A DNA stretch of 64,000 bases from Promethearchaeota archaeon (lineage in GTDB: Archaea > Asgardarchaeota > Lokiarchaeia > Sigyniarchaeales > SOKP01). The stretch's first letter is position 1. Each line of letters starts with the position of its first letter. Below are positions 38,069 through 43,213 of this stretch, piece after piece. Below the pieces are notes generated by a model. It did no database searches, was not told the DNA's origin, and was given only the letters and a program-made list of their open reading frames with translations. A program made the position numbers and the translations under genes. The stretch lies in contig JBHLOY010000001.1 of the NCBI GenBank assembly GCA_048939995.1, forward strand, positions 128,001 through 192,000, given 5' to 3'.

Positions 38069-39406
38069 TTATGCTCCAGTTTCAATATCCTTGACTATGC
38101 CAACTGCAATAGTCCTGCCCATATCACGAACGGCGAATCTCCCCATCTCCGCAAACTGGTCATAGCGCTCCAAGCACATCTTTTTTATAGGCTGTAGTTT
38201 AATGACAGCAGATTCATTTCGCTTTATGAACTTCGGTGCATCTTCTATGACCGCTCCTGTTTTCTGATCAAGCTTTTTGCTGATTTCTATGAACTTTGCT
38301 GCGACCTGAGCAGTATGAGCGTGAATTACAGGGGTATATCCTTGAGCAATAGCGGTTGGGTGCCAAATAACTATAATTTGCCCTGTCCAATTGCCATTTG
38401 GGAATATGACGTTAGGGGGATTGTTTGGGTGACCAAGGCAATCTCCTCTCCCTACATCCTTCATTTCAAGGCCTCTAATACTGAATCCAACGTTATCACC
38501 TGGTTCAGCTTGAGGAATTTCCTCATGATGCATTTCAATGCTTCGGATTTCACCTTGAAATCCAGTTGGCATAATGATAATTTTGTCACCTTTCTTAAGT
38601 ACACCAGTTTCGACTCTACCAACTGGAACAACACCGGTTCCTTTAATTCTATACGCATCCTGGATTGGGAGTCGTAATGCCTTATCAGTTGGTTTTGGTG
38701 GTATCTCAAATTGATCGATTGCGTCAATGAGGGTTGGACCATCATACCAAGGCAATTTATCGCTTTTCTTTGAAAGATTTTGCATCATCAACCCTGAGAC
38801 AGGTACAAATGGAATCTTTTTAACAGGGAATCCTATATTTTTTAAGAGATCTGAAACTGCTTCTTTGCATTCATTAAAGCGTGCTTCACTATAGTCATAG
38901 TTATCTGCTTTATTGATTGCTACAACTAATTGTTTTATTCCAAGAGTTTGAGCTAAATAAGCATGTTCTCGTGTTTGACCATTGGCAGCAATTCCAACTT
39001 CCATTTCACCTTTTTTACCAGATACAACTAAAATAGCAGCATCAGCTTGTGAAGCACCCGTGATCATATTCTTTACGAAATCAGCATGACCAGGAGCATC
39101 AATTATTGTGAAATATTTGTTTGGAGTTTCAAATTTTCTGAAAGCTAAATCGATAGTAATACCTCTTTGGCGTTCCTCTTTTAATTTGTCAAATACGAAT
39201 GCATAGGACCAAGAATCTCGATCGAACTCTTTTGCTAATTTTTCTAATTCGCGAGCTTCTCTATCGGTGACTGCTCCTGTCTCTATTAACAGGGCACCCA
39301 TCATTGTGGACTATATGGGATTAAACCTAAGTGGTTATCTAATCATTCCATGATCGATGTGCCCAATAATAACTAGATTCAGATGTTGTTTTTGTTTTGA
39401 AGACAT
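38069..39406 (-). CDS. tuf: Translation elongation factor 1-alpha, two exons: 39406-39346 and 39312-38069 (434 aa spliced)
   Basis: Exon 1 MSSKQKQHLNLVIIGHIDHG+A joined to AG+STMMGALL restores GHIDHGKST; downstream ERQRGITID, DAPGH, NKAD, GRFAVRDMG. Confidence 0.95.
39313..39345 (-). other. Candidate 33-nt bulge-helix-bulge (archaeal endonuclease-type) intron in EF-1alpha mRNA
   Basis: Insert UGAUUAGAUAACCACUUAGGUUUAAUCCCAUAU; central helix AUGG/CCAU; 3-nt bulges AA^U and AU^A; intron stem GAUUAGA/UUUAAUC; in-frame stops if unspliced. Confidence 0.88.
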
Positions 39407-39549
39407 TTCTTTATCAACTTAATTTTTTTTTAGATAATATAATATTAATTGAATATAGATTTTATTTAAAGATATTAGTTCTAAGTCTTGCTCAATATTT
39501 ATTTTTTACTATAAAAATAAGGTAATTTTGTATATAATAAGAAGGTAAG

Positions 39550-41084
39550 CTAATTTTTTTCATTTTTTAACTGAATTATTTCAGATAAAGTTTTATTACA
39601 ACTTTTTTTCTTAATTGGAGCTGAAATATTCCATTCATTCATTAATTTACGTAAGGTCTTAATATTTACCTCCAAACCATTAGCTACGTCTTGGACAGAA
39701 AATCTATCAACCAAAAATTGAAGATTATTTTCATTTTCTACTTTTGACTTTAGAAGATCATAAGCCTCACGATAAGTATCAAAATATCTCCTTTTCCTTT
39801 CAAGGGAATCGACACAATTTTCAGTACTACTTATCATTTCATTGAATAAAACCGCTCCTAATGAGAGTTCCCATACTATCCTTCGAGATTTGATAATGTC
39901 ATCCGGTGATGGTTCATTTTTAACATAGACTTTGTATTTAATGTCAAAGACATCCTTTATTTTATCTAAAAACCATTTTTCCGATGAACAAATCTTTGTA
40001 GTCCCCTCTATCCTATCGGCATCATATACACCTAATAACCAAGATAAAGCATGTTCTCTATTATTTTCATTAAGATTCAATACAAAGTCGGGAATTTCCT
40101 TAAATTTAATTCTTTCTAAATCTTTAAATAAAGGTTTACATGTAAATTGTACATTTATAAGTGTGAATTTCTTTTTCTCTCCATGATAATCAATTATTCT
40201 TTCTCTTTCATTCAATTTATTTTTAGGGTTTAATCCTAAGACTTCACAAAATTTTAATAAATGAATTTTGTCCTAAATAAAAAGCCTAACCAATATGCTT
40301 TATCTTTTGTATTTATTCTTTTAAAATAATCATATTTTAGCTTTGGTTCCTTTACTTGCCACTGCTGATGTGAATAATCTTTTAAATTAGGATTACATTT
40401 TTGATACTTCTCAACTATTTTTGAACTTATTCCAATCTCTTTATTAGAGGATAATAAATTCTCTTCTAACATCTTGATTTGTTTCTTAGAAAACTTATAA
40501 TCAGGATTGTATCCAGAATTATTCGGATTTTTCAGTCTCCCAAAAATATGTTTTAAGAATTCCTTCCCTCTACCAAAATATTTAATACTTACATATTCTC
40601 GAAGTTTTGTAATAGAAAGTGAATCTAGATTTGGATCTACTTGTACCACTGCTTTAAGTAAGTCATTGATGAAATTATCTGTGGGGTATTTTCCAATTTT
40701 TTTTGGCTGACTTTCAAGATCATAATTAATATTGCTAATTTTTACACCCCTTTTGATAGGTACATCTCTATTTTCCTTTCTTTTCGATATCGTATTTTTA
40801 TCTTCAGAATCTCCCATCCAATGAATCGAATCACATTTCTTTACTTTTTTCTCTTGAGAGCCTTTATTTATCCAATCTATCTTATCAAACTTAGTTGTAT
40901 TTTTCTCATTAGGAGCATTATTTACCCAATCTATCTTATCAAATTTACTCTCTTTGTCTACTCTCTCTCTTTTTTTATTATCTTTCAATATTTTTTCTTC
41001 ATTATCATCATTATAATCAACCACAATATCATTATCTGTTTTATTTTTCTTAACAGAGTTATTGTTCTTTGTTTTAAAACTCAT
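39550..41084 (-). pseudogene. Decayed free-standing double-motif LAGLIDADG endonuclease (track ORFs 40254..41084 and 39550..40215)
   Basis: DYFKRINTKDKAYWLGFLF is truncated before the expected ADG; frame change at ~40274 continues DKIHLLKFCEVLG; second motif WLLGVYDADR; C-terminal HTH-like SVQDVANGLEVNIKTLRKLM. Confidence 0.75.
40818..40946 (-). repeat. Three 54-bp (18-aa) tandem repeats, KFDKIDW-type
   Basis: KFDKIDWVN / KFDKIDWIN / KCDSIHWMG; CCAATCTATCTTATCAAA identical in two copies. Confidence 0.85.
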
Positions 41085-41124
41085 TTTTTTTTAACCATTT
41101 TCTCTTTTTATTTTTAATTTAAAA

Positions 41125-41520
41125 CTAAAAATTAAGGAATGAATCCTTATCATTAGCTGTTTTACATAAGTATCGCTCACTTTCGTTTAATACTAAGGCG
41201 TATCTATTTCGAAGGCTAAGGAGCATGTCCCTTTCCCTCAAATTTCCTGTAAAAATCTCGTTACTAGGATAGCCTAAGCGGAAAAGAATTTTCGTTCTTG
41301 CAGAATCTATGGCGCTATCATAGAGAAGATATGGTCTTTGTTCCGAAATAATGTACCCTAAACCTTTTGCGTCACATTCCTCAATATTGTTTGAAAAATA
41401 GCTATTAAAAGTATTTTTCATAATGAATTCTGCTGATTCGGGAACTCTTCGCTAGTCACTCTTACCCCATTCCTCTCTAGTTTCACTACTTTTAGTCCGA
41501 ACTTCCTCAATTTCAGCCAT
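41125..41520 (-). pseudogene. Hypothetical gene with in-frame TAG at codon 23
   Basis: ATG 41520 MAEIEEVRTKSSETREEWGKSD*RRVPESAEFI continues in frame into track ORF 41125..41421. Confidence 0.55.
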
Positions 41521-41683
41521 ATTGATATTATAGAACCTCTATATTTAAAGAAAAAACCTTCTCAAAAAAAACCATTAATTCTCTTAATTAGGATATAACT
41601 GGTATGAAAAAATTGAAGAATTAATTGATTTTAATAATAACGAGTTTGAATTTGCAAGATAAAAAATCAATTCTCAACGATAA

Positions 41684-42208
41684 ATGCTAAAATATTATAA
41701 ATCATTAGAATTTCTTCTACATAAATGTATAAGAGTAAGTAGCGAAAATCTAATGAAAAAACCAAAAGCATTAAAAATAAAATCTATTTTCAGTGATAAA
41801 AAAACATTTTTCTGTGGAGAATGTGGATCAGCCATTAAATTACTAGATAAAACCTGTAAGAAATGTGGGTTCCAAAATAAAGTCAGAATAATGGCTATCC
41901 AAGAATTAGAGTCAAGGGAGATAAATATTAAACATGATTTAGATAGACTTGTAAGAGAAATGAAATCTAAATGGTTAATTGCACAATCTGTACAATTGAA
42001 AGAAATGGAAATAGATTTATTAATGGAAGCGGCTCGGAAAATTAAATTAAGAAGGGTGCAACTAGAAATAGGAAGTATCCCAGAAGATAGAATAAGGTGG
42101 GTAAAATCCCAATATCATGAAAAAAATAGAACTATCCAAGAAATCGCTGATGATCTAGGTGAAACCATGATCATCGTGAGGAAATACGTTGATTCTAATG
42201 TACAATAG
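41684..42208 (+). CDS. Zn-ribbon + HTH hypothetical protein
   Basis: CGECG...CKKCG; RTIQEIADDLGETMIIVRKYV. Confidence 0.7.
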   Translation: MLKYYKSLEFLLHKCIRVSSENLMKKPKALKIKSIFSDKKTFFCGECGSAIKLLDKTCKKCGFQNKVRIMAIQELESREINIKHDLDRLVREMKSKWLIAQSVQLKEMEIDLLMEAARKIKLRRVQLEIGSIPEDRIRWVKSQYHEKNRTIQEIADDLGETMIIVRKYVDSNVQ

Positions 42209-42359
42209 AATTATAAAGAGTCTTTGGATTTAAATATAATAAAGTAACTTTCCAAAAGAAAAGAGGTTAGAGAAAACTACTTCTTCTAGAAAAATTAATT
42301 AAAGACGTTAAGGTTTTTGTCAATTAGATCTATAGATGAAACAATTTTAAGATAGAAAA

Positions 42360-42608
42360 ATGATTTGTCCAAATTGTAAGAATCAAGTTGTCCCAGAAAG
42401 GATATATATGAAACCTATAAAGGATTATTGGATTCTGGGCAGTCCTCAATGTCACATTTTACTTTATGAAGAGATTGTATATACTACTGAAAAGAGTAGA
42501 AAAATGGCAGAGTTAAAGAAAGAATTAAAAAGAAGGGGATTCGATAATTCTGTTTTAAAAGAATTAGATAGTAAGAAAAAAAGAGAAGTTAATAATAAAA
42601 ATCCCTGA
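42360..42608 (+). CDS. Small Zn-ribbon-like hypothetical protein, possibly degenerate
   Basis: MICPNC...GSPQCH (second CxxC lacks its first Cys). Confidence 0.45.
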   Translation: MICPNCKNQVVPERIYMKPIKDYWILGSPQCHILLYEEIVYTTEKSRKMAELKKELKRRGFDNSVLKELDSKKKREVNNKNP

Positions 42609-42751
42609 TCGAATACGATGGCAACCCGAATTAATATAGATGATTTGCTTAGAAACACTCAAGTAAGACGGTATGATATTCTGGCTTTAAGTGAAGATTT
42701 TAGTAGAATCACTGTGGTTTAACTTTTTAATTGGACAGTTGTTATATATTT

Positions 42752-43213
42752 TTAATTCAATAATTTTTTAGAATTTCCTTTAAGATCTAGGTACAATTCT
42801 CCCTTATTCTCCAATAATAAGTTGAATATTCCATTGACTTGTTTTTGAAAGTTAATTATTTCGCCATTTTTATCAGTAAATTCAATTACAACTTTTCTCT
42901 CTAAAAATTCATGAAATACTTGTTGGATATTATAAATATTTACTCGCGTTTCCATGAAAAAATCTAATAAATGATGTAGATAAAAAGCTTTAACATATGA
43001 TTGTTCTTTGCTATATTTCTTTTCTAAATCTTTATAATGAAAAAATTTTAACTGTTTCAAGACAATAGAATCTTCTTCATCAAATAAGTGTTTTAATTTC
43101 TCGTTAAAGGTCCACTCTGTACCATAGTCAATATTTCTATCCACAAAATTAGCGATTAAGCGATCTATTCCTGCTTTATCTGTCCATTTATTATGAATAA
43201 CCCAGTTTGGTAT
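42752..43213 (-). CDS. Hypothetical putative metal-binding helical protein; probable ATA start at 43213
   Basis: (M)PNWVIHNKW...VDRNID...FYLHHLLD; frame extends 23 codons upstream of the track's GTG. Confidence 0.65.
   Translation of the reverse strand: MPNWVIHNKWTDKAGIDRLIANFVDRNIDYGTEWTFNEKLKHLFDEEDSIVLKQLKFFHYKDLEKKYSKEQSYVKAFYLHHLLDFFMETRVNIYNIQQVFHEFLERKVVIEFTDKNGEIINFQKQVNGIFNLLLENKGELYLDLKGNSKKLLN

Follow-up and report, generated by a model that had tools for sequence, protein, structure and literature searches.

Collaborative homing has been described for phages, where, as far as the pair is summarised in PMC2790892, the free-standing endonuclease F-CphI is associated with a group I intron of psbA (Zeng 2009; Bonocora and Shub 2009). 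In phage T4, the free-standing nuclease encoded by mobE mobilises the neighbouring nrdB intron by co-conversion; MobE is an HNH nickase and acts away from the insertion site (PMC2790892). In archaea, the closest described element is the BHB intron in the cbf5 pre-mRNA of Crenarchaeota, which is 16–44 nt long, interrupts a conserved codon and is removed by EndA; the parts of that report considered here name no nuclease partner for it and call its origin unclear (PMC2738675). In the literature consulted, which covers the field incompletely, a pairing of a nuclease with a BHB intron has not been reported for archaea, and such a partnership was found for phages only.

In this study, we analysed a 64,000-nt stretch of DNA, referred to here as the window, from a Lokiarchaeia genome (G000); other labels beginning with G, L or P denote genomes, loci and proteins of its relatives. 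The locus described below resembles the F-CphI/psbA pair in that a free-standing endonuclease gene lies near an endonuclease-less intron of a conserved gene and is inherited jointly with it. It differs in its location on an archaeal chromosome, in the use of a LAGLIDADG enzyme with a predicted rather than a known cut site, and in its partner, which is a protein-spliced BHB intron of about 30 nt in tuf and not a self-splicing group I intron. As in T4, a neighbouring free-standing nuclease would mobilise the intron by co-conversion; however, whereas MobE acts at a distance, the comparative data on tuf point to the intron site itself. The intron shares with that of cbf5, as far as the latter is described in PMC2738675, a short BHB structure, a position in a conserved codon of a protein gene and a size too small to encode a nuclease, but in contrast to cbf5 the Asgard BHB introns occur in several genes, some of which have an adjoining nuclease gene.

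The nuclease gene and the intron of tuf

The original prediction placed a co-oriented LAGLIDADG gene about 140 bp ahead of tuf, and this arrangement was confirmed: the two-motif gene (41084–39550, minus strand) has the same orientation as tuf and ends 143 nt before its ATG at 39406 (Table 1). It had also been read correctly from the sequence that the KAYWLGFL helix is cut by a frameshifting deletion near 40274 and that AGG stands at the expected glycine of the second motif. Compared with intact alleles, the deletion takes out the catalytic R-D-G, beta1 and most of beta2, and the reading frame shifts at 40277/40274 into DKIHLLKF; the catalytic Asp of motif 1 is absent from the window copy, so that both catalytic residues are not encoded in one frame. 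The reference intact alleles (L031 and L042) show 2–5 further mismatches to the window over about 2 kb. A homology search recovered full-length alleles of 535 aa from the same species (P0001 and P0009), which consist of a low-complexity N-terminus, a helical region, the nuclease and a C-terminal HTH-like segment, and in P0001 both LAGLIDADG helices end in the catalytic Asp. The description of the nuclease as dead holds for the allele in the window; elsewhere in the species the gene is present at full length. Of 100 aligned homologues, 99 have Gly at the position altered in motif 2; among them the Arg is found solely in the window species, where it is present in every allele including the intact ones. 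The clade formed by G000, G131 and G140 has in addition an unusual Arg preceding the first catalytic Asp, which is found in 2 of 100 homologues.

Table 1. Features of the tuf locus in the window (positions are those of the 64,000-nt stretch)
Feature	Position	Strand	Basis or remark
tuf (EF-1alpha), 434 aa once the intron is removed; no other copy found in the genome	38069..39406	-	
ORF-less BHB intron, 33 nt, within the P-loop Lys codon of tuf	39313..39345	-	205 nt from nuclease stop
Spacer upstream of tuf, presumed promoter/5' UTR, 143 nt, cassette-type haplotype	39407..39549	-	
Free-standing two-motif LAGLIDADG endonuclease pseudogene	39550..41084	-	ORF calls, homologue alignment, fold model
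C-terminal helix-turn-helix-like segment	39632..39699	-	Secondary structure of model; weak HTH matches in relatives
Second LAGLIDADG motif LLGVYDADR, Asp kept, Gly to Arg (AGG 40014-40012)	40012..40038	-	Alignment
Break point, TT in place of 75 nt of the intact allele (net -73 bp, frameshift)	40274..40277	-	Alignment with intact alleles
First LAGLIDADG helix KAYWLGFL, truncated before catalytic Asp	40278..40301	-	Alignment with intact alleles
Extra 1.6 kb on nuclease side, ORFs of 98, 174 and 82 aa	41085..42684	.	
Retained empty-site spacer, left junction of inserted block	42685..42735	-	96% to intron-less sister G019
Conserved 130-aa host gene	42752..43144	-	Directly upstream of tuf in closest empty alleles

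An assembly error is an unlikely cause of the deletion. The Logan contig L400 carries the identical deletion with 0 mismatches over 3.8 kb, although it may share the genome's own sequencing run, and the points of divergence between the two alleles coincide exactly with the ends of three other Logan contigs and with N gaps in two scaffolds, which is what would be expected from mixed alleles in an assembly graph. The 73-bp deletion is thus probably segregating within the population of the window species and, together with the Gly-to-Arg change in all alleles seen, it places the nuclease of this species in a phase of degeneration. That the protein was under purifying selection in the past follows from the dN/dS of the nuclease, which is 0.13–0.30.

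As modelled by AlphaFold (pLDDT 93), the intact nuclease matches the two-motif LAGLIDADG structures of bI3 maturase, I-AniI, I-DmoI and I-SceI (Foldseek E 8e-7 to 3e-5, 12–19% identity), and the 50 PDB matches listed for it are LAGLIDADG-fold proteins throughout. A Pfam scan of both window fragments, of the intact allele P0001 and of P0002 gave no match to a LAGLIDADG profile, and PF14528 scored above its cut-off solely in a relative from the GH38 clade described below. The identification as a nuclease rests on the motifs and the fold. The named enzymes and the tuf-side protein have the same fold and two catalytic Asp motifs in common. I-DmoI, bI3 maturase, I-AniI and I-SceI are encoded inside their introns, whereas the gene next to tuf lies outside the intron and has a long N-terminal and an HTH-like addition.

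If the tuf intron is left unspliced, two in-frame stops result, and excision of 39345–39313 restores GHIDHGKST; no second tuf copy was found in the G000 genome. The intron RNA folds as a canonical BHB, with a 4-bp central helix between two 3-nt bulges and predicted splice sites after the second base of each. By direct count of this BHB, the central helix is paired in 13 of 13 related alleles, with a compensatory change at 6 of the 7 inner-stem pairs; RNAalifold favoured an exon–exon pairing over the central helix. The host genome encodes two EndA genes/subunits and one RtcB. Judged by these features the intron is of the EndA/RtcB type and not self-splicing.

Distribution of the pair and the foreign tract

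Members of the nuclease family were found at many loci in 80 of 135 genomes, with up to 10 matches per genome, and since the family is so common the proximity to tuf needed testing. The original prediction had itself warned that the proximity could be chance, and had suggested that the co-occurrence of nuclease and intron be examined across genomes. When the tuf locus was compared across 124 genomes of the family, a BHB intron was present at this P-loop base in 10, and a nuclease gene or remnant lay directly upstream of tuf in 8 of these 10 alleles versus 0 of the 114 others, 106 of which have at least 700 nt of flank. The warning was justified as to the abundance of such genes, but these counts make a chance arrangement unlikely. 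The introns paired with a nuclease are 29–33-nt BHB introns, and the upstream gene is intact in G140, G081 and G121, frameshifted or partial in G000, G131 and G074, and a mere remnant in G018 and G129; the two remaining introns have no adjoining nuclease. In five genomes tuf is interrupted elsewhere, and there no nuclease lies next to the gene.

On the tuf tree the alleles with the P-loop intron do not group together: a single clade is rejected (AU p 7e-80) and 8 changes are needed. In seven independent pairs the nuclease follows the intron in five, opposes it in none and shows no difference in two (sign test, p=0.0625). Eleven metagenome loci add two further lineages, each of which has both paired and orphan tuf introns. 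Outside the family, the P-loop (GK) intron was found in 0 of 19 genomes from other families of the order, and four archaeal non-Asgard matches of a GTDB-wide pattern scan, among the 80 of 90 matches listed and with bacterial matches left aside, were rejected as chance matches.

Several observations on individual loci may be recorded here. In G010, whose tuf is intron-less, eIF2-alpha and the 130-aa gene are separated by about 1.4 kb of decayed DNA (L181:3850-5330), which contains a nuclease fragment closest to the tuf clade; this fragment is short and lies one gene further from tuf. The tuf inserts of L077, L078, L079, L081 and L087 are 29–33 nt long and occupy five other positions, four in the G1 region and one after DAPGHAD. 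The tuf genes of G129 (L086) and L303 have ATT at the expected start codon, and the P-loop of G054–G056 (L171–L173) reads GHIDQGK.

The extent of the DNA that travelled with the intron can be read from the most closely related sister pairs. Where one sister has the intron and the other lacks it, the first 60 nt of tuf hold 11–13 differences, against 0–6 in later windows: G131 and G133 have 13 differences there and 0–2 in each of the next six windows, and G121 and G120 have 12 and then 1–4, while like pairs (G018/G131, both with intron, and G021/G133, both empty) have none in these 60 nt. In these pairs the promoter and 5' exon track the intron rather than the host tree, and the foreign tract takes in nuclease, spacer, 5' exon and intron, and its end lies shortly beyond the intron. 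The distribution of the spacer haplotype likewise crosses the host tree. The spacer of G000 matches those of G018, G131 and G140 at 83–85%, but those of its own sisters G019 and G010, which resemble other empty alleles, at 63–66%. The 5' exon of G000 is sister-like (96% to G019), so that its tract is a mosaic.

At the far end of the block, the left junction of G000 is unlike that of G131, G140 and G018 and, as the sister-type empty spacer has also been kept, this indicates a separate gain. The extra 1.6 kb in G000 has no nucleotide match in any fetched locus of other species; its 174-aa ORF is zinc-ribbon-like by a weak Pfam match, and Rfam gave nothing credible at 41000–42800. The nuclease dS between G000 and G131/G140 is 0.94–0.95 and thus lies inside the host-gene range of 0.76–1.64, from which it follows that these events are old; a recent transfer between G000 and G131/G140 is unsupported. 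The nuclease remnant of G129 (genus g1) is closest to the enzymes of genus g22, and between G081 and G121 the nuclease dS is 0.96 versus 0.24 for tuf. In the nuclease trees the two tuf-adjacent clades are not joined with strong support, and monophyly of all tuf-adjacent nucleases was not recovered.

Relatives of the nuclease beside other genes

A clade nested among the tuf-adjacent enzymes (85/90 support, which is moderate) sits upstream of the aIF2-gamma gene in G128, G014 and G015, and in all three this gene has a 29–30-nt BHB intron at the same P-loop base as tuf, about 440–470 nt from the nuclease gene. On inspection, what tuf and aIF2-gamma plainly have in common in sequence is the P-loop word, and the pairing at aIF2-gamma is the best indirect evidence that this word may be the nuclease target. 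All six members of another clade are divergent from a GH38 mannosidase gene that has a 30-nt BHB intron after HWDRE. G000 has neither intron nor nuclease at aIF2-gamma or GH38. The family was also found beside BHB introns in genes named by inspection as a DhnA-like aldolase, a CobO/BtuR-like P-loop gene and an MglA-like small GTPase (L073, L263, L074 and L290), of which a copy may hold as many as two. As a control, 257 gene copies taken from flanks without a nuclease were scanned; this weak background of 32 distinct and mostly less conserved genes gave two weak matches.

Not all members of the family have an intron at their side, and not all introns have a nuclease. No intron was found near the members beside rpoA', aIF5B, proS, purQ/purS and the fwdA of G018, and these members show that an intron would not be the family's sole means against self-cutting. 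Conversely, 23 of the 29 aIF2-gamma introns and 9 of the 15 GH38 introns have no adjoining nuclease; such orphan introns are expected where nucleases invade, decay and are lost in turn (PMC3943268). These genomes are generally rich in BHB introns, and the P-loop base interrupted in tuf also carries introns in EF-2 and aIF5B.

Across four kinds of translational GTPase gene, introns of 29–32 nt at this base were recorded at L196–L224 (aIF2-gamma, at least 29 of 135 genomes) and at L401–L404, L406 and L418 (EF-2 paralogues and aIF5B); most have a BHB-type central helix, and in G046 this helix has a compensatory change. The 30-nt BHB intron of the GH38 alpha-mannosidase (L225–L239) is present in at least 15 genomes, and its sequence is identical in G005 (genus g1) and G086/G113 (genus g22), suggesting spread across genera. 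G000 itself has, outside the window on contig C17 (near 375400 and 377425), another LAGLIDADG remnant, also decayed, and a 30-nt insert of fwdA at a distance of about 1.7 kb from it; in G018, fwdA is intron-less and an intact relative lies beside it. Four loci (L059–L061 and L065) encode family members as long fusions, with open frames of 800–1300 aa and unrelated N-terminal regions.

Explanations for the pairing

We consider it fairly probable that the locus reflects collaborative homing with an ORF-less, EndA-spliced mRNA intron whose nuclease is now decaying. The gene of a free-standing LAGLIDADG enzyme would have spread within a single piece of DNA that also held the promoter and first ~20 codons of tuf and a 29–33-nt BHB intron. 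The enzyme would cut the uninterrupted P-loop coding sequence of an intron-less tuf, and repair from the donor would copy the nuclease gene through to just past the intron. Once the intron interrupts the target in the DNA, the allele would stay uncut, and host EndA/RtcB would excise the intron from the mRNA and so keep the essential gene functional; the intron would be unable to decay and would outlast the nuclease. Of this scheme, the comparisons above document the linkage, the patchy distribution, the polarity of the tract, the fold, earlier purifying selection and current decay. The co-spread of intron and nuclease put forward in the original prediction gains from the co-conversion tract and from the related pairs at other intron-bearing genes, and is limited by the phylogenetically corrected p of 0.06 and by the members beside intron-less genes.

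These last members would fit a trans-homing process in which the target lies in the tuf promoter or 5' exon, base changes there protect the allele and the intron is passively carried in the tract. The cassette has its own spacer, any of the 11–13 differences in the first 60 nt could give immunity, and T4 mobE sets a precedent, in that it mobilises the nrdB intron although it does not nick at the site of insertion (PMC2790892). However, such hitch-hiking leaves unexplained why a nested clade should stand at aIF2-gamma with an intron at the same base 440–470 nt away, and members of the tuf, aIF2-gamma and GH38 clades were never found beside an intron-less allele of known status; we regard it as rather unlikely. 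It is more improbable still that an ancestor had both elements and that they were lost together in its relatives through recombination with empty alleles. The general abundance of BHB introns and the similarity of nuclease and host dS in the G000/G131/G140 group would be in line with old linkage of this kind, but many joint losses would be required, and the differing left junctions, the empty-site spacer kept in G000, the affinity of the G129 remnant to another genus and the discordant dS values of G081/G121 all speak against it.

The HTH-like segment, a dN/dS well below 1 and the unusual motif-1 Arg might instead point to a domesticated DNA-binding protein or maturase that serves the expression or splicing of tuf. 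This is very improbable, as the gene has been repeatedly broken or lost while the intron of the essential gene stays (G000, G018, G129, G127 and G149), and most aIF2-gamma alleles with an intron have no such gene. Even less credit can be given to chance proximity in a genome family rich in LAGLIDADG genes and mini-introns: however widespread and numerous the nuclease genes are, none lies directly upstream of the 114 tuf alleles without the P-loop intron, and the pairing recurs at other genes.

Beyond tuf, we tentatively propose as possible that free-standing LAGLIDADG enzymes of one Lokiarchaeia family are the agents by which tRNA-type mini-introns spread, and perhaps arise at the cut sites, in essential protein genes; the family would retarget between paralogues that share the P-loop word, as from EF-1alpha to aIF2-gamma, and orphan introns would remain after the nuclease has decayed. 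The mobility of ORF-less archaeal mRNA introns such as that of cbf5 was open, as far as it is treated in the parts of PMC2738675 considered here. The tuf locus and its relatives offer a concrete mechanism, in which a neighbouring homing nuclease would provide the mobility and the host tRNA-splicing machinery would make the insertion harmless. A single family displays several stages of the homing cycle, from intact and frameshifted genes to remnants and orphan introns, and appears to have switched from one GTPase gene to a paralogue as its target. Its intact members, such as P0002 and the enzymes of G121, G081 and L301, have predicted targets. For genome annotation, it is of consequence that the genes for EF-1alpha, aIF2-gamma, EF-2 and aIF5B are mis-called, with the P-loop missing, in some Asgard genomes. 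If the proposal is true, it would describe a general way in which mRNA introns are gained and spread in Asgard archaea.
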